Below, one piece after another: positions 12,152 through 42,671 of a stretch of DNA of 64,000 nucleotides. Positions within the stretch are counted from its first letter, which is position 1; every line of letters begins with the position of its first letter. The notes under the pieces were generated by a model. It did not search any database. It was not told the origin of the DNA and saw nothing but the letters and a program-made list of their open reading frames with translations. Origin of the DNA: Candidatus Thorarchaeota archaeon (GTDB taxonomy: Archaea > Asgardarchaeota > Thorarchaeia > Thorarchaeales > Thorarchaeaceae); NCBI GenBank assembly GCA_019057475.1, contig DXJO01000018.1, forward strand, positions 66,348-130,347, read 5' to 3'. Position numbers and translations under genes: made by a program.

Positions 12152-12354
12152 AGTCCAGCCTCCTCTATCATCTTGATTGCTTCCGGAGTTAGGAATAATA
12201 GGTCGCCCTCACGGAGCACATATCCTTGGAACATCCCGTCGCTGAACTCAAGTAGTTCTTCGAGTCTGTCAAACAACTTCTCAAACAAGTCCCTCAGGTC
12301 GGGGTGTATCTTTGGGTCAACGACTCTGCGTATGGTTGTTATTGTATCACTCAT
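12148..12354 (-). CDS. Small hypothetical protein
   Basis: 68 aa, ATGA overlaps on both sides. Confidence 0.65.
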   Translation of the reverse strand: MSDTITTIRRVVDPKIHPDLRDLFEKLFDRLEELLEFSDGMFQGYVLREGDLLFLTPEAIKMIEEAGL

Positions 12355-14405: not shown

Positions 14406-14480
14406 CCACCTTACCTCCGTCGCTGTCTGTTTCTTCCTTATTCATTCTGATTACACTCCTAATAATGAGAAAAACAGTCA

Positions 14481-14540
14481 GACCCCCCATTGTCCGATTG
14501 CAAGGGTTAACCCTATCCCCGATTGCAATGGCTAATGGTC
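14481..14540. promoter_or_regulatory. Candidate origin/operator: direct repeats plus palindrome
   Basis: CCGATTGCAA at 14494 and 14519 flanking the palindrome AGGGTTAACCCT, upstream of the helicase. Confidence 0.4.
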
Positions 14541-15037
14541 ATTACAGCTTTTTGTGCTCTCTCGTTGCTTTCGCAACAACGATAATAACATCCATTTAAA
14601 AACTTTCCTTTTTCGACGCTGTTCAGGATTTTTCGTGACCCCATCAATCATGGCTCGCAGTCGATAAGGAGTTGGCCTTTATGCTGGTAAAATGGCGAGC
14701 CAGCCGAAAATAACCAAGGAGAATAGTCTGAATTCACCCAGCTCAAGTGACAGGAAATAACAACCAACTAACGATGGCCACTGAGTTTACACCAAGGTGT
14801 GGAATCCAGCTAGTCAGTCATGTGCACTTCTTTGTAGTACGGAGTCAGCCTAAGAATACCCCTAGAATGCAAGGCATTCGGCATATCTACTCCCAATCAA
14901 GTGTACTGAGAGCCATTAGATAGATACAGAGAGCCAGAGCTTAGAGGCACACGTGTTCAATGAACAGTGGCGAAGGTAGTGGCAATTCAGTTGGGATGGT
15001 CTGCATCAGTGCTCACCAGCAGTCTTCAATACTCCAA

Positions 15038-16147
15038 TCATTCCAATTTCCAGCTATAATCAACCATATCCAGTAGTTCAATCATATTTCCCATCCAAAC
15101 TACCAATGCAATTACCACTCGATCGACCATCCCTTTCGTTGCATATTTTATATCGGGTTCATGAATGGGTTTGTTTACAAGTTTCAGCAGAGTTGTTGTA
15201 TGAGAATCGAGGAAATCCAGTGTCTTACGGATTGCTTTTCGTTCTACTTCATATTTTCTACCGAACTTTTCTTGTGAACGCTGCTTTATCCACTTCAGAA
15301 TCTTATCCAACTTCGTTTTTACAGCGCTTTCACCTGGCATAGCTTCACTATCCGAAAGCATCGTAGATCTCAATACTTCCCCAGTGAACCTTCGGATGAT
15401 TGTTCTAACATTATCTAGAACCTGTTTCCACTCTAGAGGATCTTTTCCTCTTTCTTGTTTACTAACTGTTTCCTTTAGTAGTTCTATAAGAACAGGATTT
15501 AGATTTCCAAGTTTGATGGCAATCAGATTCTGGGTTTCATCAAAAATGCTTGCAAAAGCATTCCCAAATTGGAGCGCAACGAAATGCCAAGTAGCGAAGT
15601 CATGAACTTTGGCTCTAATGGAATAACTCATTCCTCTCATTTTCTCTACTGGAAGAATAGCTTCGAGTGACACTACCATATCTTGCTTTTCTCTGAAGTA
15701 TGATGAGGAATCACTTTCATTTTCAACTACTTTCGAGAAAACTAGCTTCTTGGGTTGATTAGCCGTTTCAAGTTCCATACAAGGATAGGTAATCAAGAAG
15801 GGAGTTGGCAAAGGTGCTGCTGAGAGTTGTAGTTGTAGCATTGTATGGGGGTATCTTGGATCTGCAAATGGCGGCCTGGGCGATTTGGCTGGTAGAATCA
15901 CATGTCGATACGCTGGAACTCTGAATTTCTTATTTAGCTTCATTTCTTCCTCTATTGGGATTTTTGGGTATCCAACTAGCTCAAGATTTATCCACAGAGT
16001 TTCAGACTCATCCAAGTCTAGTAATTTTGATGCTTTCTGACACCTGTACAGAAGCGCGGTTGTTGTGACATTGGAATCTTCAATATCATTGAGTATTGAT
16101 TCGAGTATTTCTAAAGCCTTCTCTTTTCTTGATGAGATGTCAATCAA
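15038..16147 (-). CDS. AbiTii-like domain protein
   Basis: N-terminal pattern ALEILESILNDIE...LLYRCQKASKLL...WINLELVGY...YR. Confidence 0.65.
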   Translation of the reverse strand: MIDISSRKEKALEILESILNDIEDSNVTTTALLYRCQKASKLLDLDESETLWINLELVGYPKIPIEEEMKLNKKFRVPAYRHVILPAKSPRPPFADPRYPHTMLQLQLSAAPLPTPFLITYPCMELETANQPKKLVFSKVVENESDSSSYFREKQDMVVSLEAILPVEKMRGMSYSIRAKVHDFATWHFVALQFGNAFASIFDETQNLIAIKLGNLNPVLIELLKETVSKQERGKDPLEWKQVLDNVRTIIRRFTGEVLRSTMLSDSEAMPGESAVKTKLDKILKWIKQRSQEKFGRKYEVERKAIRKTLDFLDSHTTTLLKLVNKPIHEPDIKYATKGMVDRVVIALVVWMGNMIELLDMVDYSWKLE

Positions 16148-27719: not shown

Positions 27720-27794
27720 AAGACATATCTGGTCATCACTGACAAGGGGCGACGTGTGGCGCAGAAGATCAGGGAGATTCAGGAGATCCTCGAG
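27720..27794 (+). repeat. Junction repeat copy 1 (segment A: wHTH gene 3' end)
   Basis: Encodes KTYLVITDKGRRVAQKIREIQEILE; near-identical to 37598-37672. Confidence 0.9.
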
Positions 27795-27864
27795 GATCCC
27801 TAGCAAACGATAACACAGAAGAAAGACGCCTGAGTGTCAATATGGGTTCTGTGGGAGTGATCAT

Positions 27865-28533
27865 GTGAAAGATACCGTCGAGATGGACTCACTCGGATTC
27901 CGTAGATGGCAGGACGAGTTAAGGCAAAGATTGTTTTCAACAGAGAAGGGAATCCGAGTCCTGCTGGCGTTTGCAGGCCTACTAGGGTTTGTAGCAAGCT
28001 CGAGCGAGTTGTGGCTGACATCTTCGCTTTCATTCTTCTCTAGAATTCCTGATTTGCCAGATGGGCTCTTGACCCCGGTCATTCTATTCTTTGTGCTCGT
28101 TATTCTCTATTGTGAGAACTGGAAAAGGATTTGTGAGCGGTGGGATTGGAAATCAGGTATTGGGTATGGTCTGATCAGTGCAGGAGGGGATGTTCTAATC
28201 ATGTGTCTGGTGACTTATGGGCTCTATCTAGGCATCGGAGAGTTGACGAGTGTGACTCTCCCCATATCATGGAAATTGTTATATCTTGCAGTCCCGCTGT
28301 CAATAGGGGAGTTCGCCTTGACCTCGATGATTTCTAACCTCTTGCAGAAAATCATCTCTCTTGAAAAGGAAATTGATGAGGCTGGTAGAAGTTTGCAGGA
28401 GTTAGGTCAACGGGCAAGTAGAATCCCTCAGGAGGATCTGCGTACTTCTGAGCGCAGCCAGATAATCCGCGATTTTGTGAAGGACACTTCAGAACAACAG
28501 GGGGGGGAAGATGATGACAAAGAATCAGGCTGA
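27865..28533 (+). CDS. Four-TM membrane protein with a C-terminal coiled coil
   Basis: Four hydrophobic segments followed by a heptad-rich tail. Confidence 0.75.
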   Translation: MKDTVEMDSLGFRRWQDELRQRLFSTEKGIRVLLAFAGLLGFVASSSELWLTSSLSFFSRIPDLPDGLLTPVILFFVLVILYCENWKRICERWDWKSGIGYGLISAGGDVLIMCLVTYGLYLGIGELTSVTLPISWKLLYLAVPLSIGEFALTSMISNLLQKIISLEKEIDEAGRSLQELGQRASRIPQEDLRTSERSQIIRDFVKDTSEQQGGEDDDKESG

Positions 28534-30028
28534 AGAAATCGAAGAAACGATTGCAAATTTGGTGCGAATGGTTGAAAAGCTGAAGAGTCAAGGCATTACG
28601 ATCCAAAGCGATGTCATGGCCAAGATCCTCTCACGTATTGAGATTCTAGAGGGCAAGTTGAGATCTCTTGATACGTCTAGCGTTGATATGCAGAAGGCGA
28701 TGGAGGAGATTCTTCCCAGGTTCGAGAAAATGGAAGTCGACTTCGGGAAATGTAGGGCCGTGTGTGAGCTAGGACAGGTGAAAAGGCCCTCGGGGAAGAC
28801 CAAGAAGCTCTTTTCGAAACTGGATAAGCTTGCGAAGAAGGGCTCCATAGCCAAGGCTATCGATCTTGCCCAGGAATATCGTATCGAGTTTAAACAAGAC
28901 CCTACTTTCTGGTACTATTTTGGGACCCTACACCTAGCCAATGACAATCCAACGGAAGCTCTCAACTTCTTCGACAAGTCGGTGAAGCTAGACCCGGAGA
29001 TGTTTGAGCCTCATTGTAGTTCTGTTATGGCATTGGCCGATCTTGACCGCCTAGACGACGCCAAATCGTACATTGTCAACTTGATAAAGAGCCATCCGAT
29101 TCCGCCCTGCCATGGATTCTATAGTTTCGTTGGAAACATCCTGTGGAGAAAGGGATCCGTTGATGATGTGAACCAGATTGTTGAGAGTGTTACTCATCCA
29201 CTGAAACCAGGCTGCACTCCATGTATCAAGGCCTTTCTGTACCTCAGTGTAAAGGAGGGGCAAAAGGCCCTTGATGCGTTGAAGGACGTCGAGGGAGTAA
29301 AATGTCCGGAATACAGACTGGTTCGTGCTGCTGCGCTAGGTAAGGCCGGACATGCTGATGACTTTGTCGCTGAGATTGAATCCGTCAAACTGAAATTCGA
29401 GATTGACCCAATGATGTACCTTGTTCTGACACAGGCCATAAAAAGCTTCGATTCGAAAAGCCAGTGTGAAACCTTGAAGACCTTTGCAATGAAGATTATG
29501 AAGAAGATCAAGTGGAGAAAGGTGCTTGAGCCAAAAGGCAGACTGTTGGAGGCCGCAGCATACAAATCCTACAATCTGCGGTGTCCTGATGTGGACTTTC
29601 GTCTTCGTTTGCTCAAAGAAGCCGCAAAGCATCACGATTGTCCAGCCCTGCGCAATAACCTGATAATCACCTTAACTGACATCGGAAAGCCCGAGGAGGC
29701 CAAGAGAACTGCCAGGGAGGCAATCCGGAAGTACCCTGAAGACAATGACCTATTGATTGGAGCGGCATGGGTTTTCTCCAAGGTTGGCGAAAGAAACCTA
29801 GCGTCAAAGGCAGTTGATGATGCGTTGAAGCGAGAGAAGATTGCAGGTGACTCTGATGACTTGGTCAGGCTTGCCGCAATAGCGAGAAATTTACAGCTTG
29901 GCTCCTATGACAGCATTGTTAGAAGTCTATACGACATCGTTGAGAAGGAGCAGCCGGAGATGCTTGAGTCTATGCGAGAGCGATTTCCGATGGGCGAAGA
30001 TGAAGACATTAAGGCGTCAGAACCATAG
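28511..30028 (+). CDS. Coiled-coil plus TPR-repeat protein, Cys-rich
   Basis: FWYYFGTLHL..EALNFFDKSVKLDP; GKPEEAKRTAREAIRKYPED. Confidence 0.8.
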   Translation: MMTKNQAEEIEETIANLVRMVEKLKSQGITIQSDVMAKILSRIEILEGKLRSLDTSSVDMQKAMEEILPRFEKMEVDFGKCRAVCELGQVKRPSGKTKKLFSKLDKLAKKGSIAKAIDLAQEYRIEFKQDPTFWYYFGTLHLANDNPTEALNFFDKSVKLDPEMFEPHCSSVMALADLDRLDDAKSYIVNLIKSHPIPPCHGFYSFVGNILWRKGSVDDVNQIVESVTHPLKPGCTPCIKAFLYLSVKEGQKALDALKDVEGVKCPEYRLVRAAALGKAGHADDFVAEIESVKLKFEIDPMMYLVLTQAIKSFDSKSQCETLKTFAMKIMKKIKWRKVLEPKGRLLEAAAYKSYNLRCPDVDFRLRLLKEAAKHHDCPALRNNLIITLTDIGKPEEAKRTAREAIRKYPEDNDLLIGAAWVFSKVGERNLASKAVDDALKREKIAGDSDDLVRLAAIARNLQLGSYDSIVRSLYDIVEKEQPEMLESMRERFPMGEDEDIKASEP

Positions 30029-30045
30029 TGACGATTAGGAATTCG

Positions 30046-30251
30046 GAAGATCAATGAGATCTAGGAAATCCTCGAGAAGGACTAGCGGATGAACCAGGTA
30101 CGAAGGCGCGTTTCAGCAGCCTCATCCATCTCGGTCTCGAGAGCCTTCTTCACTTTCCTGGAGAGGGCTTCGACATCTTTGCCCTCGGACATCGTTCGAA
30201 TGACAAGCTCATCAATAGCATTCAGAGTATCAATGCGCACCTGATTGGCAA
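30046..30251 (+). repeat. Junction repeat copy 2 (A tail plus full segment B)
   Basis: B encodes on the minus strand ANQVRIDTLNAIDELVIRTMSEGK...RLRTWFIR*; about 93% identical to 40187-40360. Confidence 0.9.
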
Positions 30252-30320
30252 AAGCTAATGAGCAACATCTTCTAGAGCTCATCGACCTTGTGCTATCAGT
30301 CTTGCAGTAGGTGTGGGTAG

Positions 30321-31721
30321 ATGAATGAATCTGAACCTCAAGTACCAGATATATCAGAAACAAACCAAGAACTGATTGATCTAATGAGTACATTCTACAA
30401 ATCCTATAGGATGCGTTGTCTGGCTGTTCTCCACGAGGATAGTTATCACAGTATTCATCTTTCAAAAACCTGGCAACCATTCGAAGTAATCGACTCTGTC
30501 ATGGGAGAGTACAAAACCAACTCTTTGTTATTCATCGAGATGGAAGTTAATCGAAGGAACGATGAGCCGAGAAGCATCTTTGCAGAATCCAAGATTGAAA
30601 TTGGGTCCCATGAAATATCACTCAAAACCTCAGGACACCCTCAGACGCTTCGAATTGACCAGCTGTATCGAAATTCAAGAGTAGCTGCAGTAGGATATCT
30701 CTGTGAGTCACCAGGAATCGTATTGAAAACAACGGAATCTCTCCCGCCCTCATTGAAGGATACAACAGAGAGAATAGATGAGGAAATAAGATACCATCCA
30801 ACAGTGCCTTTTCAGAACCTAGAGCACTTTCTTCGCGGCTTGGGCATATATGGAACAAGGGATCTTAAACAATCGGGCGTTGATGAGTACATACCATTTT
30901 GGGCATGGATTGATGAAATGGAGGTTGAAGGAATGAGAGTGAATGTCAGATTCAAATATCATTCCAGCATGGAACCTAGACTTGCCGCCTATCTCTCAAT
31001 TGAAACAGTGGATGGTCATCTTGAAACACAAGAAAAGGGCATCACAGGATTAGAGAGAGAGGAGATTGATCGAGGTATTGTTGTTGCAGCAGGAACATAC
31101 ATGCTACCCACGACCAATTCGCCAGCAGCCACCGCACGGATTGCTTTGGCAATTGACAAGAAATACTCGTTGCACTATGATAGTCAAGAGATAAGTCCAC
31201 CAAAATTGGATTTGTGGTCCATAATACATCGACTCGAGAAGAAAGAGGGACGACTTCTTCAAATGTTAGAGGGGGAAACTGGTCAAGTTAATGTTGACAA
31301 ACTTGAATTCAGTGTGGGGATACTTTTGGCAAGTTTAGGATTCAGGACTCTATACACAGGTAGAATTCTGGAACCTGGTCCTGACCTTCTCGCGATAGCT
31401 CCTAATGATAAAGACATACTTATTGTGGAATGTGGACGGGAGAAAATTGAGCAAAAACTGTCTGTTTGTGCAGAGAGAGTTGACGAATTTGGGAGGGAAT
31501 TTTCTCAATACAAATATACTGGAATCGTTTTCACATCCTCTATAGTCCCTGATCAAAGAAGATCGAAGCTAATGACTCCTGGAGTTGTCCTACTAGATGG
31601 AAATAATCTAAAGCAGCTACAGGAGATAGCAGCAAGAAGTCCCAATCCTGCGGCCATACTTAACACTCTCCTCCGAGCTAGAGGTACTGGATGGCCTGTT
31701 TCTTTTGAGAGTAAATGGTGA
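30321..31721 (+). CDS. Hypothetical protein with a C-terminal Mrr-like PD-(D/E)xK-type domain
   Basis: LEFSVGILLASLGF...GPDLLA...IVEC. Confidence 0.7.
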   Translation: MNESEPQVPDISETNQELIDLMSTFYKSYRMRCLAVLHEDSYHSIHLSKTWQPFEVIDSVMGEYKTNSLLFIEMEVNRRNDEPRSIFAESKIEIGSHEISLKTSGHPQTLRIDQLYRNSRVAAVGYLCESPGIVLKTTESLPPSLKDTTERIDEEIRYHPTVPFQNLEHFLRGLGIYGTRDLKQSGVDEYIPFWAWIDEMEVEGMRVNVRFKYHSSMEPRLAAYLSIETVDGHLETQEKGITGLEREEIDRGIVVAAGTYMLPTTNSPAATARIALAIDKKYSLHYDSQEISPPKLDLWSIIHRLEKKEGRLLQMLEGETGQVNVDKLEFSVGILLASLGFRTLYTGRILEPGPDLLAIAPNDKDILIVECGREKIEQKLSVCAERVDEFGREFSQYKYTGIVFTSSIVPDQRRSKLMTPGVVLLDGNNLKQLQEIAARSPNPAAILNTLLRARGTGWPVSFESKW

Positions 31722-31793
31722 TTAGAGACACCTTCGAGAAACTTGGGTAGAGAAAAAGTTGTTCGAGTGCGCGCGAAAAGCGGAGGAATTGAA

Positions 31794-32420
31794 ATGGAGA
31801 ACAATGGACTTGAAAGGATAAGTAAGATGCTAGAGATAGCACATACTGACGCCGCTGTATTTCCACCTACGGACCTTTATAATGAGGGTTGGATGCTAAG
31901 GATTTTACTATCAATCCAATCAGAAGGGGTAGAATGCTTCCCTTTTACTTTTCAGCCTGGAGCAAGATGGTTTTCAGAAGCACAAATCGGTTCTCCGTTT
32001 CTTCCTCGTTTCCGAGGAGATCCACTAGCTGAGCGTCATACACATCTTGATGGAGCAATTGGGCATTTTGCTTTTCAGTCTGGAACGAAGACAGGGTTAA
32101 CACTCACAGCTGATTCAAAGCAATTCGTGGTTACTGAAGCGAAGATGTTCAGCCCCTTATCCAAGGGAACAAAGAATGCCAAGTACTATGACCAAGCCAC
32201 TCGAACAATTGCATGCATCGCTTGGGCAATTGGCCTATCAAACAGGTTTGTGGATGATTTCGTGTCCCTTGGCTTTTATGTTATTGCCCCACATGAGCAA
32301 ATTACAGGAGGCATTTTCTCATCGCAGGTCAATAAGTCAAGTATTAGAGAAAAAGTCAAGCTTCGCATCAGTGTTTACTTAGACGACGATAAAAAATACG
32401 ATGAGTTGCAGATGTGGTAG
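31794..32420 (+). CDS. PD-(D/E)xK-type hypothetical protein, probably prematurely terminated
   Basis: THLDG...TEAKMFSPLS...DQATR; the frame continues after the TAG. Confidence 0.55.
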   Translation: MENNGLERISKMLEIAHTDAAVFPPTDLYNEGWMLRILLSIQSEGVECFPFTFQPGARWFSEAQIGSPFLPRFRGDPLAERHTHLDGAIGHFAFQSGTKTGLTLTADSKQFVVTEAKMFSPLSKGTKNAKYYDQATRTIACIAWAIGLSNRFVDDFVSLGFYVIAPHEQITGGIFSSQVNKSSIREKVKLRISVYLDDDKKYDELQMW

Positions 32421-32459
32421 AAGGATTTCTTCATTCCCGCTCTTGAACATATTGATATC

Positions 32460-32630
32460 CGCAGGTTCTCACTGGTCGAAACGGAATTCGAAAAGAAGGC
32501 GCGTGGGGGTAAGAGAAGAAGAGAAATCGGTAAAACTGACTATCAGGCTAGAGGAGTGATGTACCTCCCAGAAGAGTTTCGATTCTCATATCTGATGAAA
32601 TTGCCTGAGAAGAGCGATATTGGGAAGGAG
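32460..32630 (+). pseudogene. hsdM: Type I RM HsdM N-terminal fragment
   Basis: RRREIGKTDYQARGVMYLPEEFRFSYLMKLPEKSDIGK resembles HsdM N-terminal sequences. Confidence 0.6.
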
Positions 32631-32808
32631 TTTGGTGTTACTTCCTGCAGCTTCATGATTCTCAGAGAAGAAGTGTAACTGCATTAGGACCCCTCTTTCC
32701 CTCCATGGCATTCGGTACTTCAGTTGCCAGTAGTGCCGTTCGACATTGATGGTAGTAAAGAACAGAAAAGCTCAAATCTTGGGTGATGGATGCTCGCACG
32801 AAGGAACC

Positions 32809-34479
32809 ATGGTCCACATCACGGCTGACTACATCAAATCCGTCTTCAATGAAACAATACGCAAGAATGTTTTTGTCGATCTATCAGGCAGGACATCTCT
32901 TTTAATTCCGACATATCTGATTCTCAAGATGATTGGCGTCAACAAGCATAGCGCTGTGCCGTACAATGAAAATACCGCCAGAGACGCAGCGTTTCTCTTG
33001 CATACACCCTATCTAAGTACTGAGGCCCATCCGCTAGAGAAGTACCTAATCAATCCATTCCACAAGTCCTACCTGAAGGCATTCGGAAGTAAAGCCTTTT
33101 GGCGGGCTGAATCTCTCGACGATTATGTGAAGTTGGGAAGACACGGGCTCTGCAACAACTACGTTGGTGGTGGCACAATCTGGGATCGGATACTTGCAAC
33201 AAGCGAGAAGACTCCTATTAGATTCCGAGCGAACTACATCGAAGCAATCAAGAAGGAGTGCGGGATATCCTACTCGAATCGGATTGACATCACCCAACTA
33301 GCTGCTTGGTGCTTCCGGGAGCTCGATTTCGACGGCGCACCTTCTGCTTCGAGGACAACGCAAGACGTAATTGAAACGTTTCTTGGAACATTCAACATAA
33401 CGGAAGAAGAGCAAGATGCGCTCTTTGAGATAACAGGAGAATCGATTCAATTTAATTTGGCACCCTTAGACATGACCGAGGTACGAAGGGAATGTTTCAA
33501 TCTCGATTCAAACGCGGATATTGTCATGGAGCCCCTCCTTCAACAGAATGAAATCAACATAGAAAGGCGAGTGCATTTTATGAGTATCAACCCAAGCATC
33601 GAAGTCATAAGCGAATTACTCAGGATTAAGAAACAGATTATCCTTTTCGGACCTCCGGGTGTCGGAAAGACATGGATAGCAATGGAAATCGCAAAGGTGT
33701 CGGAATGGAACGGAAATGTAGAAGTCGTTCAATTTCATCCAACATATGGGTTTGAGCACTTCATTGGCGGATTCTTCCCTGCAAGTGACACCGAGATTAC
33801 AAAGGCAGACGGAGGAGAAGTGGCTGCTGATACGGGAGCTCCACTCAAAATCATCTACAAAGAAGGGGTCCTACCTAGGCTTGCCAAGGTTGCGGAAACT
33901 AACCCAGCTCTCCTCATCATTGATGAGATTAACCGCGGCAATTTATCGCAAGTATTCGGGGAAACCATCATGGCACTTGACAGAGACTACAAAGTCGTCA
34001 TAAGTTCCCACCCACGAGAATGCGAACTGCAACTCCCAGAGAATCTACATATAATTGGCACAATGAATTCGACCGATAGAAGTATCGCAATTGTGGACTT
34101 TGCAATTCGTCGGAGATTCGCGTTCATTAGGCTGGAACCAGATGCTAGGATCATTCGGGAACACTATAATAACAAGACAAAAATCGAAGAGGATAGTCAG
34201 AGTTTTGATCTTGTCGATCTGTTCGAAAGGATCAACTCCAGAATCTTGCGGAGCCCTGCACTGGGGAGAGACTTCTTGATAGGTCACTCCTACTATTTGC
34301 TACCTGACAAGGATTTTAGGTCGCTCGAGCGGACATTCAACTTCTCGATTCTACCACTAATTGAAGAGTACTCTTATGGGAATCCATCACTTCTAGTTGA
34401 GCTGCTTGGGGAGAACCTGCCAAAGAGACTGACTGGCGAAGTCCTTCTAGGGGCGATTATGGACTTCCTGGAGGAGTAA
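32809..34479 (+). CDS. mcrB: McrB-family AAA+ GTPase with an unrecognised N-terminal domain
   Basis: GPPGVGKT, VQFHPTY, IIDEINRGN, MNSTDRS, RRRF, IGHSY. Confidence 0.92.
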   Translation: MVHITADYIKSVFNETIRKNVFVDLSGRTSLLIPTYLILKMIGVNKHSAVPYNENTARDAAFLLHTPYLSTEAHPLEKYLINPFHKSYLKAFGSKAFWRAESLDDYVKLGRHGLCNNYVGGGTIWDRILATSEKTPIRFRANYIEAIKKECGISYSNRIDITQLAAWCFRELDFDGAPSASRTTQDVIETFLGTFNITEEEQDALFEITGESIQFNLAPLDMTEVRRECFNLDSNADIVMEPLLQQNEINIERRVHFMSINPSIEVISELLRIKKQIILFGPPGVGKTWIAMEIAKVSEWNGNVEVVQFHPTYGFEHFIGGFFPASDTEITKADGGEVAADTGAPLKIIYKEGVLPRLAKVAETNPALLIIDEINRGNLSQVFGETIMALDRDYKVVISSHPRECELQLPENLHIIGTMNSTDRSIAIVDFAIRRRFAFIRLEPDARIIREHYNNKTKIEEDSQSFDLVDLFERINSRILRSPALGRDFLIGHSYYLLPDKDFRSLERTFNFSILPLIEEYSYGNPSLLVELLGENLPKRLTGEVLLGAIMDFLEE

Positions 34480-34504
34480 CGCGACTTGCAAGAGGGACAG
34501 TTCA

Positions 34505-35743
34505 GTGCTGAAAATTGACACATACCTAGACAATCAGACAATTCCTTTGACTGAGGCGGAATCGCAGGAGCTCAGAGAAATCGGCAGAAAGCTTGAGATT
34601 AATCTGACCTTAGAGAATACGGATCAAGGCGTTGTCTTCTCACCTAACGGTCTGGTTGGTTCTGCGGCCCTTTCGACTCGCACAATAGTCATAGCTCCGC
34701 GCTATAGGGTTTTTGATTTCGATGTAATACTCCGGATGTGGCATTATGTTGGCTTTGGAAGGCTTGATGTGCCCAAGTCAGAAGTGGGTGCCACCATCAG
34801 CGATTTCTCCAAGTACGTCGTTTCCCTGTTCCTTTCCGAGCTTGACCGCTTGGTTAATCTGCGGGGTAGTTACATACAACATCAAGAGGAGATATCACAT
34901 TTCAGAGGTCGAATGAAGTTCCCTGAGCAAGTAGTCATTAGATCGCTAAACCCCTCTCGCTTCTTCTGTGTATTCGATGAATTCACACTTGATAATCCAA
35001 TGAATCAGCTACTTCTTCTGGCCCTAGAGAAGGTTTTCCTCTCTGGTCTGGCCGATGACAGGCCGCATGTGATCGCTAGACTTCTCAAGCGATTCGCCTT
35101 CATCAGAACGAGCGCACTACCCTTCAGCAGGGCTGAGATTGATGCTGTAATCAACCAGGCCAAGAGTTCCGCGCTGGATCGGCACTATGAATTCGCGCTA
35201 TCACTGGCCAGGATTATAGTCTTGGATATGGCCTCTGCTGCAAGGGGTGAAGGGGGCCTAACACAAGCCTTTCTACTGAACTACAATCTACTCTTCCAAG
35301 ATTTCGTCACAAGAATCCTAGTTCACTTCACGAATCTCGATCTCAAATCCGGTCCCGACGTGGACTACTCATATTGGACAGACGAGAACGATGTTGATCA
35401 CAGGCGTTTCATACGACCCGATATCGTTCATGGCTACAACGCAAAGGAAAAGGTATGCCTGAGTGTCTTGGATGTTAAGAACAAGGTCCCACCTCAGAAG
35501 GGGGATTACTTCTCGCCAAGCGACATCTATGAGGTTTTTTTCTATTCCCGTATATTGAAGGCGGAAAACATACTCCTAATCTACCCCATCAACATGGCAC
35601 GTGACCATTACACACTCAATCTAGTAATGGATGATCAAGCAGTCAGAGTAACGGCTGTTTTTATTAACCTGCGGCAAGACACATCGGCCAACTTCCACCA
35701 TGAGGTTAAGAGATTCTCTAGCGCGGTTGAGGCGCTGCTATAA
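34505..35743 (+). CDS. mcrC: McrC-family nuclease subunit
   Basis: FDEFTLDNPMNQLL, LFQDFV, IRPDIV...LDVKNK; follows mcrB. Confidence 0.88.
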   Translation: MLKIDTYLDNQTIPLTEAESQELREIGRKLEINLTLENTDQGVVFSPNGLVGSAALSTRTIVIAPRYRVFDFDVILRMWHYVGFGRLDVPKSEVGATISDFSKYVVSLFLSELDRLVNLRGSYIQHQEEISHFRGRMKFPEQVVIRSLNPSRFFCVFDEFTLDNPMNQLLLLALEKVFLSGLADDRPHVIARLLKRFAFIRTSALPFSRAEIDAVINQAKSSALDRHYEFALSLARIIVLDMASAARGEGGLTQAFLLNYNLLFQDFVTRILVHFTNLDLKSGPDVDYSYWTDENDVDHRRFIRPDIVHGYNAKEKVCLSVLDVKNKVPPQKGDYFSPSDIYEVFFYSRILKAENILLIYPINMARDHYTLNLVMDDQAVRVTAVFINLRQDTSANFHHEVKRFSSAVEALL

Positions 35744-35763
35744 TTCATTGGCAGCAACTGAAA

Positions 35764-35943
35764 CTAGGTCTTCTCCAAAACTCTAAGGACAGACTGGATG
35801 CTTCCTTCCAGCGACTTCACCCTTAGCTGAAGAGCCAATACTTCCTCCATTAGGTAAGTCAGCTTCTCTTCAATCTCCATTATCCCGTCAGAAGTCATCG
35901 GGAAGCCACTTGAATCCCTGTCAGCTTTCTTCCACTTTGGCAT
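35764..35943 (-). CDS. Small coiled-coil protein (59 aa) downstream of the methyltransferase
   Basis: Manual translation MPKWKKADRD...IEEKLTYLMEEVLALQLRVKSLE; ATG 11 nt after the MTase stop. Confidence 0.55.
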   Translation of the reverse strand: MPKWKKADRDSSGFPMTSDGIMEIEEKLTYLMEEVLALQLRVKSLEGSIQSVLRVLEKT

Positions 35944-35954
35944 TTTCTTCCGTC

Positions 35955-37376
35955 CTACGTTTCTTTTTGGAAATAGAGAATGCTCTCTCTAAGGGCAAAT
36001 GTGCGTCTGATTCCAGACCGTCTTGTGCGGTCAATCTCTATGCCAGTTGGGCGGTATCCAATCTTCTGCGCTATCATCATGGTAATCAAATCGGTTGGAA
36101 CATAAACGTCGAGGATTAGCGAGTCTCCTACGACCCACGCCACTCTGGCACCGTCATTAATGGACTTGTACATATTGCTGAGAACCAAGTGGATATCCTC
36201 AAAGTACTTCCTAAGTAACATCGGATAGTCCTTTCTTCTGATACCGATTCTCTCTCTCATTCTTGGTTTGCTGGCTGCAATAATATAGTCGAGCCAGTCA
36301 ATCGAGAGGAGGGGGGGTTGTTTTGCGTATGACTTCATCATTGATCTGGAAACGTTGTCACACAAGACCATACGGTCGCGGAGTTTGCTAAGGTCCTTTG
36401 TGGAAACAGCATCCTCCATCCAGCCTATCTCTAGCTTGTAGTTTCCAACGTAGTCGAAGCTATTGAGGTACGGTGGTGAGGTTATGACTGCATCAATTGC
36501 GATATCCTCAGGCAAAGCAAATGCCTTAGAGTCTTCACAAAACGAAATGGACCTTCCCTGTTTCTCCACCTTCGTCTGCACGAACTGAAGATCTCTGACG
36601 ATTTCCTTGATCTTCTCTCTGAACAGCTGGAATGGTAGGTCTGGGTACAGCTTCTTGGATTTCTTCTTATCGTAGCCGATTGACGGTGATCTTCTCAAGT
36701 TGCTTGATGGCAGAAGGACACTCGCAAACGCCAGCTCGAAGTAGCATCTAAGGCGTGGGTCATCCACCAATCCTACCTGTTCCTTTATCCTTAAGATATT
36801 CTCAAGTATCTCAGGCTGAAATTGCCTTTCTGTTTTGAGGAAGGCAGGAGGTTCCACTGACGCCTTCTTTGAGAAGTCCATCGCGTCATACTGGCGCTGT
36901 ATCTCTCTCGGATCAGTATCCCATGATGTCTTTGTCAAGAGCACTCTGAAGATTGTAGGATTGATTTCGATACCAACAGAATCTATGCCTTTCATCATGG
37001 CAGCAACGTTGACGGTGCCAGATCCAGCAAAAGGGTCAAGTATCCGGTGATCGGAAGATAGCCCGAACTGCTCGATTATGTCATAGACGAAGCTCTCAGA
37101 GAAGCCTTCTAGGTAGCTGGTCCAACGATGAATTGGCCTCTGTTTGTTGTTTGCGAAATTCAAACCGCGGTTCAATAACCGATGAGATATCTCAATGTCA
37201 GGAAATCTAAGCTTGAACTCATGGAGGTAAGTGTCAGGCGTCTTGAAATGATGACCGATTTCCTTCCAAAGGGTGTAGTTGCGACTGTAGAACGACATGA
37301 CATCTCTAACTATCGAGCTCGTTTGGCCCTGTCCTGTGTCCATGAAATCCTCCAGCGTTTTCATGTTGCTAACCAC
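35955..37376 (-). CDS. Amino-DNA methyltransferase (SPPY, probably N4-cytosine)
   Basis: LDPFAGSGT followed by ITSPPY. Confidence 0.9.
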   Translation of the reverse strand: MVSNMKTLEDFMDTGQGQTSSIVRDVMSFYSRNYTLWKEIGHHFKTPDTYLHEFKLRFPDIEISHRLLNRGLNFANNKQRPIHRWTSYLEGFSESFVYDIIEQFGLSSDHRILDPFAGSGTVNVAAMMKGIDSVGIEINPTIFRVLLTKTSWDTDPREIQRQYDAMDFSKKASVEPPAFLKTERQFQPEILENILRIKEQVGLVDDPRLRCYFELAFASVLLPSSNLRRSPSIGYDKKKSKKLYPDLPFQLFREKIKEIVRDLQFVQTKVEKQGRSISFCEDSKAFALPEDIAIDAVITSPPYLNSFDYVGNYKLEIGWMEDAVSTKDLSKLRDRMVLCDNVSRSMMKSYAKQPPLLSIDWLDYIIAASKPRMRERIGIRRKDYPMLLRKYFEDIHLVLSNMYKSINDGARVAWVVGDSLILDVYVPTDLITMMIAQKIGYRPTGIEIDRTRRSGIRRTFALRESILYFQKET

Positions 37377-37597
37377 GGTGTTATTCTACTAAGCTACCTG
37401 TCCTATATGATGTTTCGAAAAATGGCATTTAAACCCATAAGTCGCACCAGCAGATAGCGATTGCATACGATTTATTACATGCAGGTAGTGTCTGTGCTTT
37501 GGTGGGTTGAAGATGGCAACTTCAAGGATTGAAGCTCTACGGAACAATCTATTGGATTCTACGACAAGTTTGTACCTTGAGAAACCTGTCTGCCCCC

Positions 37598-37717
37598 AAG
37601 ACATTCCTGGTCATCACTGACAAGGAGCGACGTGTGGCGCAGAAGATCAGGGAGATTCAGGAGATCCTCGAGAAGGACTAGCGGATGAACCAGGTGCGAA
37701 GGCGCACTTCAGCAGCC
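37598..37717 (+). repeat. Junction repeat copy 3 (full A plus the start of B)
   Basis: A matches 27720-27794; 37674-37717 matches 40187-40230 at 43/44. Confidence 0.9.
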
Positions 37718-37774
37718 ACATGGAGCATGACGATTCATAGACTACATGCTGATAAATCATTTAAGTAAGGGCAA

Positions 37775-38896
37775 ATGATGGCGGAACGGGACTGGGCCGT
37801 GTCGTATGATCATGCTGCATTCTCAGGAAGAATACACACAGCCTACAAGCATAAAATCCTGAGAAAGTATTTACATCCGTGGATGGTGATACTCCGTTCG
37901 ACAAGCCCCACGATTGCTTATGTTGATTGCTATGCAGGTCCAGGAATCTACCCTGATGGGACTGAGGGGTCCCCTCTCATTGCACTGCAGATAGCCGATG
38001 ATGTCATGTCGAAATACGGTTGTAGAATCTGGTGCATATTCAATGACCGGGATGAGAGGGTCATGGAGCAGCTACGGAACTCTTTGCGAGATCGCTATGA
38101 ATGCGAACAGGTGCTAGTATTCTCATCTCAGACTGATGCGAGAGATTGCGTGGACCAAATACTCAATGATGAACGGTTCGCAAGTAACGGAAGACTCAGT
38201 GTACCGATGTTCTTCTTCATAGACCCTTTTGGATTGAATGTACCCATGCAGATGCTCAAGAGGATCATGGAGCAACCAAAGACAGAGATACTTGTCACGT
38301 TTATGGTCAAGGACGTAGTTCGATGGGGAGAAACTCATGCGTACGAACAGACTATGAAAGAACTCTTCGACCATCCAAGTCCACTAGATTTGATTGAACA
38401 GGCTGATGGCAGGGACTTCGAGCAGCAGGCAATCAATGCGTTCGTAGGCAGGCTGCATACTCATGCTGGCGTCAAGCACGTAATCAAATACAGAGTCTTC
38501 AATGAGCAGGAGCGCAGGACTCTGTTCTATCTTGTTCACGGGAGTAACCACTTCAAGGGCTTCAAGTTGATGAAAGACATCATGTACAAGATTGGACTTC
38601 TTGGTGCTTTTGCATATCTCGGTCCAGACCATCCAGACGAGGCGCAGACATTCTTGGTGCCATCGTTTGGAGATCCAGAGCTTGAGCAATTGAAGAGGCT
38701 TCTGGTAGAGAAGTATCCTGGCATGAGCACATCCTTTGGAATAATCCTTGAAGACATGTACGCAGAGGTCCCGTTCATTGAGAAGCACTTCCGTGCTGCA
38801 CTTCTGGGTCTTGAAGAGGACGGGAAAGTTGAAATCTTCGGATTCAGACGTCGTAAAGGGACTTTGAAGAAAGGCCACGGAGTGAATTTTCTGTGA
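37775..38896 (+). CDS. tcmP: Three-Cys-motif partner protein (TcmP; MTase-like fold plus wHTH)
   Basis: HTAYKHKILRKYL, YVDCYAGPG, FFFIDPFG, YLVHGSNH.KG..LMK. Confidence 0.85.
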   Translation: MMAERDWAVSYDHAAFSGRIHTAYKHKILRKYLHPWMVILRSTSPTIAYVDCYAGPGIYPDGTEGSPLIALQIADDVMSKYGCRIWCIFNDRDERVMEQLRNSLRDRYECEQVLVFSSQTDARDCVDQILNDERFASNGRLSVPMFFFIDPFGLNVPMQMLKRIMEQPKTEILVTFMVKDVVRWGETHAYEQTMKELFDHPSPLDLIEQADGRDFEQQAINAFVGRLHTHAGVKHVIKYRVFNEQERRTLFYLVHGSNHFKGFKLMKDIMYKIGLLGAFAYLGPDHPDEAQTFLVPSFGDPELEQLKRLLVEKYPGMSTSFGIILEDMYAEVPFIEKHFRAALLGLEEDGKVEIFGFRRRKGTLKKGHGVNFL

Positions 38897-39012
38897 CCGG
38901 AACGAACAGAAGCCCTGTTGGAATAACTGGTAGTCAAGAGAATCCGACACATCTTTGGGTGAAAATGGGTGGTTCAAGTACGCTGCAGATACACGAGGAT
39001 AGGGTGTCCTGA

Positions 39013-40089
39013 ATGAAGGCCGTAGAAACGAAGGAGAATCCCGACCATGAGAGTCTGGCTGAAGACCTCATGGAGCAATACCATCATCAAGGAGTTCCAG
39101 TCATCGACCTGATCAAAGACTTGGCCAAGTCAGTCGAGTCACACATCATTGCAATGGCAGTTGTACTCTTGGAGCAGCAGGCGCGAGTCTATGTGGAAAG
39201 ACATCCTGTTCTTCATAATGGGAAGCTCCGACGCGACCTTCTCTCTTCAGACATCGTATACTTCGATACGTTCCCGAGCATCCGTCGGCGCACGCTGCTA
39301 TACAAAACTGCAGTCGAGTACGGCGATTTCACCATCAACCATGTGCTTGGCTGCATGCATGGGTGCCAATACCCATGTTATGCAATGCAGATGTCCAAGC
39401 GCTACGGGAGAGTCAAGAATGAGGAAGATTGGATGCATCCCAGGATTGTCGGGAATGCACTGGACCTGCTTGAGAAGGAGATTCCGCGTAACAACCATCA
39501 GGTTCGATTCGTTCACTTATCCTTCATGACTGACCCATTCATGCATGACCCGGTCAACTGCAGAGTAATCCCCTGGATTCAGGAGCTCACACTGAAGATC
39601 ATCGATAGGTTGAATCAGGAGGACATCAAGGTGACAGTGCTCACGAAGGGTCTGTTACCTGAGGTCTTGAAGGAATCTTATTTCAACACCGACAACGAAT
39701 ACGGCATCACACTGGTTTCCATGGATAGAGAGTTCCAGGATAAGTATGAACCATTCTCAGTGGATGCCACCAAGCGTCTTGCAGCCTTGAAGGAACTCCA
39801 TGATGCAGGACTGAAGACATGGGTGAGCATTGAGCCGTATCCAACACCCAACATCGTGAAACAAGACTTTGACGGGTTGCTTGAGAAGATTTCTTTCGCT
39901 GACAAGATCATCTTTGGCAAGTGGAACTACAATCCGATAGTTAACGGCTACTCGGGCCAGACGGAGTTCTACACGACTTGTGCTGACAGAGTTATTGAGT
40001 TCTGTAATGAACGTGACATTCTCTATCACATCAAAGAGCGCACGCCAAGAAGCAGCATTGAAACTCAGGACTTGTTTGCTGAGGAATAA
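39013..40089 (+). CDS. Radical SAM protein (spore photoproduct lyase-like)
   Basis: GCMHGCQYPCYA, FMTDPF, VLTKG, WVSIEP. Confidence 0.85.
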   Translation: MKAVETKENPDHESLAEDLMEQYHHQGVPVIDLIKDLAKSVESHIIAMAVVLLEQQARVYVERHPVLHNGKLRRDLLSSDIVYFDTFPSIRRRTLLYKTAVEYGDFTINHVLGCMHGCQYPCYAMQMSKRYGRVKNEEDWMHPRIVGNALDLLEKEIPRNNHQVRFVHLSFMTDPFMHDPVNCRVIPWIQELTLKIIDRLNQEDIKVTVLTKGLLPEVLKESYFNTDNEYGITLVSMDREFQDKYEPFSVDATKRLAALKELHDAGLKTWVSIEPYPTPNIVKQDFDGLLEKISFADKIIFGKWNYNPIVNGYSGQTEFYTTCADRVIEFCNERDILYHIKERTPRSSIETQDLFAEE

Positions 40090-40186
40090 CCCGTACGCGT
40101 CAGTTCTGGTGTTCAGGCAGTGGACAAATGATCCTGTGATATCTCCATCCCATTGCTCGACCACGCCATCATTCTTCAAGCCTTCT

Positions 40187-40360
40187 AGGACTAACGGATG
40201 AACCAGGTGCGAAGGCGCACTTCAGCAGCCTCATCCATCTCGACCTCGAGAGCCTTCTTCACTCTCCTGGAGAGGGCCTCGACATCCTTGCCCTCGGACA
40301 TCGTTCGAATGACAAGCTCATCAATAGCATTCAGAGTATCTATCCGCACCTGATTAGCAA
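40187..40360 (+). repeat. Junction repeat copy 4 (segment B)
   Basis: Matches 30078-30251 and ends at the same nucleotide. Confidence 0.9.
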
Positions 40361-40624
40361 TTCACTGTAGATGCTCGAAATCGATGATCGGTTTTCTTGT
40401 TCGCAAAGTACTCAAGGATGATTCCTGCACTGGGCTATTTGGTTTCATGCTGACGAGTCCGTATGCCTTCCTCGTGGAAAGTCTGGACATTCAAGAGTTA
40501 GCGCACGCGAACTTCTAGGACGCCACATTCACTTCCAAGGGCCATGTCTGCCCGAACTAATGTTGGAAATCAAGATTAGAAAAAACAGATTAAGAACTCA
40601 GGACGATGAATACAAGATGTATTC

Positions 40625-41176
40625 ATGACAGAGTTCTATCTTGATTTCGAAACGGTTGGGCTTGACCCAACTCACCACAAGATCATTACAATCCAGTTTC
40701 AGGAGCTCGACACAAGAACAGGGAATACTCGAGGACCCTTGCAAATTCTGAAAGAGTGGGAATCTTCGGAAGAAGAGATTCTGAAGAGCTTCATTGAGAT
40801 TCTGAACACAGCCGATCCTTGGAACTTTGTTCCAATAGGCTATAACCTACGGTTTGAGCTCTTCTTTCTGCAAGTTCGAGCCAAGAAGGTGCTTGGACAT
40901 GAACTAGCAAACAGATGGTTGTACTATGACCTGGCTAGGTTGGACATCCAGAGTGTCCTTGTAATGATCAATCATGGGATGTTCCGGGGGGCGACACTGG
41001 ATTGGTTCACTAGAAAGAAGGCATCTGGCAGAGATGTGCCGAAATGGTATAATGAGAAAGATTACGAAACGATTGAGGAGTACATTGCCGATGAAGCGAG
41101 AAGATTCATCCATGCTTACCAATTCCTGAAGAAAGCGCTTCCTCCGCTGATCAACGAGTATACACCACTGCCATAG
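40625..41176 (+). CDS. DEDD/RNase H-like 3'-5' exonuclease
   Basis: YLDFETVG, IGYNLRFE, YIADE. Confidence 0.75.
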   Translation: MTEFYLDFETVGLDPTHHKIITIQFQELDTRTGNTRGPLQILKEWESSEEEILKSFIEILNTADPWNFVPIGYNLRFELFFLQVRAKKVLGHELANRWLYYDLARLDIQSVLVMINHGMFRGATLDWFTRKKASGRDVPKWYNEKDYETIEEYIADEARRFIHAYQFLKKALPPLINEYTPLP

Positions 41177-41302: not shown

Positions 41303-42472
41303 CTAGGACTCATCATTCATCTCGGCGTATACTTCTTCAGCTGGTTTTCCTTCTGCTGACTCGACGATATAATCAACAAACTTACGAAGGGTCTTGACCT
41401 CATCCCGCAGTATCGCTATATCTCTCTTATGAGCAGACTCGGCCTTCTTGATTCCCTCTACAGTCAGTGGGAATCCACACGAGGGACAGAATGATGCTCC
41501 CATGTCGATACCATCCATGCCGCAGCTCATACAGTTCAGATAGTCGAGCATCTGCCTTCTCGGGACCTCAACCTCCTTGCCGTAAATCTTTTCCGCGACC
41601 TCGTTCTCAACGTCATGAGTCGAGAGGTGGACATAGACCGGCTGCATGATTGTGGCATCCTTCCAGCCGACAAGTTTGGCGAGGGTCATACCCAAAACTC
41701 CTAGCTTGACAAACTCAGTAATCCGAGTGTGTCTGAACATGTGGACAATCCGTTTCTTCCCCGTGATGCCAGCGTCCTTCAAGACTGTCTTGACAATCGA
41801 GTACAGATGCGACTTGGTCAGAGGAGATACGTCACCCTGCATTGTGGTCCAGAGTGGACCCTTGCCAGTGGGATGGATGTTGAGCCAAGCCTGTAATGCC
41901 CTCAGTGACTTGCCCATAGGAATCACGCGGACGCCTGTCTTACCCTTCACGACTATCTTGTAGTCTGCGGGTCCGCCATTGATTGTGACGCCCTCGCAAG
42001 TCATGCTGAGTATCTCTCCCTGACGGCAGCCTGACTCATATAGGACTTCAAGTATTGCCCTGTCGCGGGTGTTCTTTGTTGCATTGAACATCCGCAGTAG
42101 TTCGTCGGCTGTGTACAAGTCCTCTACTGTAACGGTAGAGCTCTTCCTGTCAATGCGTGGCATCTCGACCTCATCCAAGTCGTGCTCGATGCCATAGTGC
42201 TCCAGAGCACGCTTGGCAATCCCGTACCTCTTCCAGAGAGTGTAGGGCGACAGCGTCTTCATCAGACCTCGGAAGTACTTTGCATTCAGGCTCTTGATTG
42301 GTGGAAAGTTATTAAGAATCAGGCGAACATCCTCCTTGGTGGATTCCGCCTTCATGCTGTCCTCGTACTTGTTCTGGAAAAATTCCTCATAGTGGATGAT
42401 TGTTTTTCTCTTCTCGTCCGACCCTTGCGTATTATTCGAGTCTTTCACGATTATACTAAGGGACTCAATCAT
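41303..42472 (-). CDS. int: Tyrosine recombinase/integrase with a C-terminal Zn ribbon (SNJ2-like)
   Basis: YESGCRQGE, KGKTG, HMFRH, LVGW, VYVHL; CMSC..CPSC. Confidence 0.93.
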   Translation of the reverse strand: MIESLSIIVKDSNNTQGSDEKRKTIIHYEEFFQNKYEDSMKAESTKEDVRLILNNFPPIKSLNAKYFRGLMKTLSPYTLWKRYGIAKRALEHYGIEHDLDEVEMPRIDRKSSTVTVEDLYTADELLRMFNATKNTRDRAILEVLYESGCRQGEILSMTCEGVTINGGPADYKIVVKGKTGVRVIPMGKSLRALQAWLNIHPTGKGPLWTTMQGDVSPLTKSHLYSIVKTVLKDAGITGKKRIVHMFRHTRITEFVKLGVLGMTLAKLVGWKDATIMQPVYVHLSTHDVENEVAEKIYGKEVEVPRRQMLDYLNCMSCGMDGIDMGASFCPSCGFPLTVEGIKKAESAHKRDIAILRDEVKTLRKFVDYIVESAEGKPAEEVYAEMNDES

Positions 42473-42521: not shown

Positions 42522-42671
42522 GGTTTTGAAAGACAATGGTAGCTCGGCCGATGATTCAGATAGACGAGTAGAAGTGCAATAGCTGAATCTGGCAAGAAGA
42601 TACCAGTACGAACCTACATCATCGGGGTGCGAGGCGCGACTAAGGCCGTACTTTAGATATCTGGGATGTTA

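Follow-up and report, generated by a model that had tools for sequence, protein, structure and literature searches.

The locus analysed here lies in a 64,000-nucleotide (nt) stretch of a Candidatus Thorarchaeota genome (the window; G000:C51:66348-130347, where G000 is the source genome), in which the 3′ ends of two convergent protein genes, here named A and B, recur around groups of mostly defence-type genes. The source is a metagenome-assembled genome (MAG) from a 2015 short-read marine-sediment metagenome, and shares its family with records that bear the title Candidatus Thorarchaeota. From left to right, the array consists of an A tail; a transmembrane (TM) and tetratricopeptide repeat (TPR) gene pair, referred to below as cargo 1; a decayed A tail, a′, joined to a B tail; a middle interval with two genes of no known family, an HsdM_N-like piece, McrB/McrC and a methyltransferase (MTase); an A tail joined to a short B piece, b′; the TcmP and radical S-adenosylmethionine (radical SAM) genes of cargo 3; and finally B.

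The first A tail (27720-27804, plus strand) comprises the last 28 codons of the winged helix-turn-helix (wHTH) gene A and ends in EDP; no B follows it, and cargo 1 starts past a CTCGAG. Over 85 nt it is 92% identical to the tail at 37598-37682, which ends in EKD and is preceded by a diverged lead of ∼20 nt that it has in common with the first of two copies in another genus (genome G045, described below), so that the feature spans 37578-37682 (plus strand). The B tail is likewise repeated, at 30078-30251 and 40187-40360 (174 nt, 93% identical). Its left copy (30082-30251, minus strand) holds 56 of the 71 B codons, and the right copy extends into a full-length gene (40187-40415, minus strand). 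The b′ piece (37674-37721) contains 5 nt from beyond the B stop and 43 nt of the B tail, and matches 40187-40234 at 46 of its 48 positions (96%). The a′ piece (30046-30085, plus strand), a decayed A tail of ∼40 nt with five mismatches and an in-frame TAG, stands directly before B as the right-hand copy of a duplication around cargo 1. An A arm and a B arm are present at both internal junctions; the A-side and B-side duplications have ∼8 nt in common, around the stops, and at 37679-37682 both stop codons are contained in the single tetranucleotide CTAG. In all of this our reading agrees with the initial annotation, which had located and translated the tail repeats, noticed the shared CTAG and given the same cassette order. 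Its statement that neither complete gene lies in the window holds for A, present as a fragment only; B is full length at 40191-40415, with an in-frame TGA at 40362-40364.

Cargo 1 (27865-30028, plus strand) encodes a 222-amino-acid (aa) protein with no family match and an overlapping 505-aa TPR protein, with no PADLOC match. It has the A tail on its left and the decayed 40-nt copy on its right. Cargo 3 (37775-40089, plus strand) encodes only TcmP (TIGR04474, 174.7 bits) and a radical SAM/DUF5131 protein, a pair that matches the PADLOC candidate system PDC-M30, and carries no mobility gene. The two 48-nt copies that flank it are mutual closest relatives and hold the same allele-specific T, and in silico removal of cargo 3 yields a junction that is 96% identical over 141 nt to an unoccupied G045 junction, with the same 20-nt lead. 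Both cargo 1 and cargo 3 are true insertions, each in an A-tail/B module of its own.

The ∼7.3 kilobases (kb) between the two modules (30252-37577) have a different character. Two proteins of 466 and 225 aa, which had been called nucleases, show no family match. An 84-codon open stretch (32421-32672) has a weak HsdM_N-like match (E 0.0019, below the cut-off) and is probably the remnant of a type I methylase gene. Both McrBC subunits are matched, the GTPase by an McrB-like AAA_5 protein (32746-34479; PF07728, 2.7e-17) and the nuclease by McrC (34505-35743; PF10117, 3.4e-30). A type II MTase gene (35955-37376, minus strand), 91% identical in aa sequence to a gene on contig C40 of the same genome, is followed at 37389-37582 by the 5′ end of a glycyl-radical enzyme gene, which likewise derives from the C40 locus. 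Only the first ∼190 nt of this gene, which encodes 790 aa, are present; the fragment breaks off at the A-tail module, where the joint shows a microhomology of 5 nt (TGAGA). Window 35955-37582 as a whole corresponds to a segmental duplication of G000:C40:68766-70351 (L070). With this C40-derived segment, the HsdM_N-like fragment, and parts that segregate in other metagenomes at breakpoints away from A and B, the middle interval is no cassette; it is a composite spacer between junction copies of different allelic origin. The two B copies differ at 12 sites, 7 of them synonymous, and the copy at 30078 carries allele markers in common with the second G045 copy, unlike the copy at 40187. The four junction copies are therefore not the in-place duplicates of one hotspot that the initial annotation had proposed. 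Its view that cargo enters at the A/B stop-codon junction is borne out, and its view that inserts duplicate part of the junction applies to cargoes 1 and 3 and fails for the composite middle interval.

Such an array might in principle be an assembly chimera, with strain variants or separate loci joined through short repeats. The MAG stems from short reads, and in Logan contigs from the source run the assembly breaks at every repeat, so that the cassette order given here is that of the MAG assembly. Against this, the depth of the unique segments in that run is uniform at 34.5-36.6, the exceptions being two short contigs at 30.7 and 39.4; the longest exact repeats between copies measure 32-53 nt, so that reads of at least 100 nt can span them; a single contig from another run, X18, spans the A tail, b′ and TcmP; and similar arrays occur on unrelated contigs. 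We consider a chimera highly improbable. One apparent contig joint, from 27796 to 37674, was set aside as uninformative, as it falls inside 46 nt common to the first A tail and the one at 37578-37682.

The source genome as a whole holds six A-tail and five B-tail copies, several at 88-97% identity, and both full genes are found on another contig (A at C22:15961-16248, B at C22:20163-20378). The 95-aa A protein has weak PadR/HxlR wHTH matches. B (71 aa) belongs to no Pfam family and has seven relatives among 5.8 billion proteins; its predicted structure is a two-helix hairpin (pLDDT 88), and its model has no PDB match at E ≤ 0.001. A search of viral contigs, among which the initial annotation had expected the intact genes to be sought, returned no relatives of A or B. 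On C22 the two genes are convergent and 3.9 kb apart, and between them lie genes for a protein of no known family, an N6_N4 methylase, a GmrSD_N protein and a RiboL-PSP HEPN protein. A divergent partner of A, of ∼80 aa, is conserved in four other genera; the B side, in turn, has a membrane zinc-ribbon gene and a MORC-like ATPase set as conserved neighbours. Paralogous three-gene sets (MORC-like HATPase_c_3 plus two genes of no known family) stand beside B and its membrane zinc-ribbon partner on C22 (L066, 14729-17936) and C32 (L067, 450-3615), and possibly constitute a further defence system. At G000:C43:13285-15958 (L068), an A gene that has decayed and contains a TGA is joined, with GGAGG as the microhomology, to a duplicate of the membrane/zinc-ribbon protein gene of C29:141064.

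To survey the A/B pair more widely, we made profile searches of 87 Thorarchaeia genomes. B is present in nine, and in seven of these it is convergent to A, whole or as a tail, at no more than 4 kb along one contig, with 0-3.9 kb of varied cargo between them: no gap in G045 (twice), G059 and G007:C51, 1.6 kb in G054, 2.8 kb in G099 and 3.9 kb in C22 of the source genome. In G007:C51 the pair is an empty, paralogous one in which both genes are full and their 3′ ends overlap by 21 nt. Unoccupied A-tail/B junctions were found in G045 (two), in G059 and on one Joint Genome Institute (JGI) contig. Single-gene cassettes bracketed by A tails, with duplications of 57-85 nt, occur in G059: one contig has a Schlafen gene, a tail, a 267-aa gene and a tail, and on a second a CyanoTRADDas_TM gene stands between two tails, the latter of which precedes B with the common CTAG. 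Pieces of A that retain only the C-terminal part number ∼12 in six genera, as compared to at most three that retain only the N-terminal part. A/B copies elsewhere adjoin variable cargo, within the source genome as well as in other genera and metagenomes, as the initial annotation had anticipated.

The A tail of the JGI contig covers 54 nt and matches the G000 copies at 90-98% DNA identity, whereas the adjoining B has only 45% protein identity, so that the tail is either conserved or re-imported time and again irrespective of B. (Bases 1-99 of a JGI contig, L072, are 79-95% identical to short dispersed repeats on G000 contigs C42, C19 and C14.) The short contig G045:C361 (L047, 7258 nt), assigned to another genus, carries two A-tail/B modules with 89-98% DNA identity to those of the window, a similarity due either to recent transfer or to a mis-binned contig. 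A scan of one metagenome with an A-tail pattern returned only two short contigs. Other candidates were rejected as tail repeats: weak A-like pieces in G011 and on G007:C22, which at the DNA level do not repeat the A genes of their own genomes, and a piece in G007:C4, which is a diverged paralog fragment.

The region also varies within populations, as seen in Logan contigs from other runs (contigs that drop rare variants). In X16, from an independent study, and X2, from a cold seep, 26569 is joined straight to 32728, skipping the first A tail, cargo 1, the left B tail and two genes. On a further contig from X16, 31745 runs straight into the A tail at 37601, and in X16 different DNA precedes 30252. 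The depth of cargo 3 departs from that of its neighbours in X16 (14.6 versus 82) and X18 (69 versus ∼5).

The candidate enzyme in the window is an Xer-like tyrosine recombinase with a C-terminal zinc ribbon (41303-42472, minus strand), whose link to the repeats is putative. It lies 0.9 kb from the last B, with a gene for an RNase H-fold (DEDDh-like) exonuclease (40625-41176, plus strand) between them, and an integrase fragment is found ∼1 kb from the A tail at G000:C51:10414. The initial annotation had proposed an integron-like system, and a dedicated platform of this kind, in which the adjacent recombinase captures integrase-less cassettes at the A/B junction, the tails are maintained sites and the cassettes pile up beside the integrase, would fit the proximity of the integrase, the best-kept duplication (46/48) around the insert closest to it, the paired A and B arms at both internal junctions and the recurrence of tail-flanked cassettes in other genera. 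Of the integron hallmarks that we tested, an IntI-type integrase and attC sites are absent, and an integrase stands close to the array at one locus only. The integrase scores 15.5 bits against the integron-integrase model TIGR02249 (cut-off 265), and its best match, archaeal XerA at 78 bits, is also far below its own cut-off of 220. No attC-like fold was found for a 91-nt junction on either strand (z = +0.14 and -0.58 for the window, -0.6 and -2.3 for G045), the only stem formed being 6-7 base pairs (bp) of GGTGCG/CGCACC. Immediately beyond the integrase 3′ end (41185, 41299), contigs from X16 and X2 carry DNA unlike that of the window. The middle interval is no cassette, and the junction copies are of differing alleles and decaying. 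We therefore regard a dedicated platform of this type as unlikely. We are equally doubtful of a variant in which a Thorarchaeia zinc-ribbon tyrosine recombinase acts in trans, inserting and excising integrase-less defence cassettes at the overlapping A/B stops with the tails as its recombination sites.

The explanation that we favour, and hold to be probable with moderate confidence, is a conserved cargo slot marked by att-like (attachment-site-like) or target-duplication scars, that is, ordinary integration scars rather than an integron-like machine. The repeats, their duplication around inserts, the slot itself and its variation between populations are seen directly in the sequences, and the hotspot recurs in related genera. 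A and B would be an old convergent gene pair of the Thorarchaeia with overlapping 3′ ends, and the few bases at which they meet would form a slot into which mostly defence-type DNA has been inserted repeatedly. Every insertion would duplicate a portion of one tail, A or B, and such a duplication would leave both overlapping genes intact. Entry may have been of the Campbell type, by a circle that brought its own tail copy; a tyrosine recombinase working in trans would make this site-specific, and without one short homology would have served. The window would then hold two junction modules of different allelic origin, one split by cargo 1 (40 nt) and the other by cargo 3 (48 nt), with the 7.3 kb between them produced by illegitimate rearrangements.

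Duplicated gene tails are the classical mark of tyrosine-recombinase integration at gene 3′ ends. Direct repeats from the 3′ end of a target gene surround the inserts here (cargo 3, 46/48; cargo 1, ∼40 nt; G059, 57-85 nt). Together with the unoccupied sites in relatives, the excess of 3′ fragments of A, and a tail that seems to travel with mobile DNA, given its 90-98% identity on the JGI contig next to a B of 45%, they point to Campbell-type entry, from which we infer circular intermediates and an enzyme. Mobile elements with an A gene are consistent with this picture. A is the terminal gene of small elements found in both G009 and G012, which also encode a tyrosine integrase along with a D5-type primase-helicase or ParB, and the G012 integrase has a C-terminal zinc ribbon, as does that of the window; no att repeats were found around these A-bearing elements. 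A tRNA-Ser gene at G009:C27 (L041, 18587-18674) overlaps the 3′ end of the integrase open reading frame of the A-bearing element, resembling those archaeal elements in which the att site lies inside the integrase gene.

Several results weigh against site-specific entry at the slot. The flanks of the window integrase contain no DNA repeat that pairs with any other site in the window, and no integrase was found within the available sequence at most A/B loci, namely C22, C32, C43, G045:C361 and G099:C9, which are short contigs. The duplications are of unequal length and lie on different sides of the junction (40 nt at A and 48 nt at B in the window, 57-85 nt in G059), and breakpoints with known parents show microhomology of only 2-5 nt. 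The X16 and X2 indel (6158 bp, ∼6.2 kb) has 2 nt in common at the joint between 26569 and 32728, and its ends lie at neither A nor B. The duplicated copies decay, b′ by indels in X16 and X18 and a′ by its stop; a′ and b′ have the look of scars rather than of maintained sites. Neither circles nor excised forms turned up among the Logan contigs, a result to which we give no weight as these contigs drop rare variants.

With few integrases, varying duplications, microhomology and an indel that ignores A and B, a recombinase-free route is a serious rival to integration by a recombinase, and we rate it a real if rather unlikely possibility. Illegitimate or homology-facilitated insertion would produce a long target duplication, and selection would retain those events that duplicate the overlap. 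Because A and B overlap, an insertion keeps both genes whole only when it duplicates the overlap, and selection alone could therefore enrich for the scars. The mutual closest relationship of the cargo 3 flanks, with their allele-specific T, fits duplication in situ; microhomologies of 2-5 nt are found at three breakpoints with known parents; and bacteria provide a precedent with 46-bp duplications overlapping gene 3′ ends (PMC2853133). What this route leaves unexplained is why similar left ends of the A tail (-57 to -105) stand beside unrelated DNA in several genera, and why a tail of 90-98% identity adjoins a B of 45%.

A further alternative is cassette exchange by ordinary homologous recombination: A and B would be the homology arms for crossovers that involve paralogous slots or related mobile elements, and unequal crossover would leave the fragments as by-products. 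Arms are available in the several copies of A and B at 88-97% identity in one genome. C22 and G011:C25 carry the same restriction-modification (RM) cargo after A, C22 and C32 have B-side neighbours in common, and nearly identical modules occur in G045, of another genus. A double crossover through full arms would, however, give no partial duplicates around inserts; the tails (40-85 nt) are too short, and the breakpoints too tightly clustered, for random unequal exchange; and the G045 contig is just 7.3 kb and possibly mis-binned. We find this explanation very unlikely. The window has no backbone synteny with C22, C32 or C43 beyond A and B.

The array is part of a larger region. A D5-type primase-helicase (DUF5906, D5_N) and an AbiTii-domain protein are encoded at 12351-16147, and these genes and the integrase at 41303 suggest that a mobile-element and defence island, now decayed, spans 9.6-42.5 kb. 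The island yielded no att repeats, and there is no tRNA gene within the window; a quick aragorn scan of the source genome, which called only 30 tRNA genes, gave no tRNA-tail arrays. Loose contig ends at 42522-42585 were considered as an island border and rejected, the site being a divergent intergenic stretch.

The nearest known pattern, by analogy, is tandem accretion at tRNA genes with partial-tRNA remnants, as in the tycheposons of Prochlorococcus, integrative elements that stand in tandem at tRNA genes (bioRxiv 10.1101/2020.12.28.424599). In both, partial copies of the target 3′ end punctuate an island of adaptive or defensive cargo, later arrivals displace earlier ones, and degenerate remnants and fragmented integrases are scattered about. 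Unlike tycheposons, the A/B cassettes occur in an Asgard host, target the overlapping 3′ ends of two protein genes instead of a tRNA gene, and lack an integrase or replication module, and their excision is only putative. A second parallel is insertion with long target duplication, described for RM genes in bacteria by a screen that retained no archaeal case (Furuta et al. 2010, PMC2853133). It matches the A/B slot in its repeats of more than 30 bp (46 bp in Haemophilus) over a gene 3′ end, in inserts without a mobility gene and in a single repeat copy at the empty site (here the G045 junction). It differs in that the A/B site has been hit repeatedly in several genera, that the repeat is multi-copy in the genome (five B tails, six A tails) and that neither of the two clear cargoes is an RM pair.

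Integrons resemble the array in having integrase-less cassettes in series with short conserved separators and a tyrosine recombinase at one end. The A/B array lacks an IntI-type integrase, attC hairpins and common promoter logic, its adjacency to an integrase does not appear to be conserved, and its separators are decaying coding-gene tails. The defence hotspots of P2/P4-type prophages and satellites hold variable defence cargo between two conserved small genes, as does the A/B slot, and A is likewise the end gene of an integrase-bearing element in G009 and G012. P2/P4 hotspots are not known to leave duplicated gene tails around each insert, in contrast to the A/B slot, and the membership of B in the element of A is only putative.

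The finding is mainly useful as a recurring and easily recognised cargo slot of the Thorarchaeia: DNA between the convergent genes for a PadR-like 95-aa protein and a 71-aa helical protein gives a handle on Asgard accessory and defence genes, and the slot yields cargoes of no known family, such as the TM and TPR pair and the 466-aa and 225-aa proteins. For gene gain in the Thorarchaeia, it points to serial insertion at a gene pair that overlaps at its 3′ ends, with duplicated tails left behind. If the integrase is responsible, it may offer a compact archaeal tool for cassette capture; if a recombinase indeed acts in trans on the tails, the system would amount to an integron analogue that is archaeal, double-stranded and based on coding sequence. 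If the integrase is not responsible, insertion with long target duplication, so far bacterial, would extend to the archaea.

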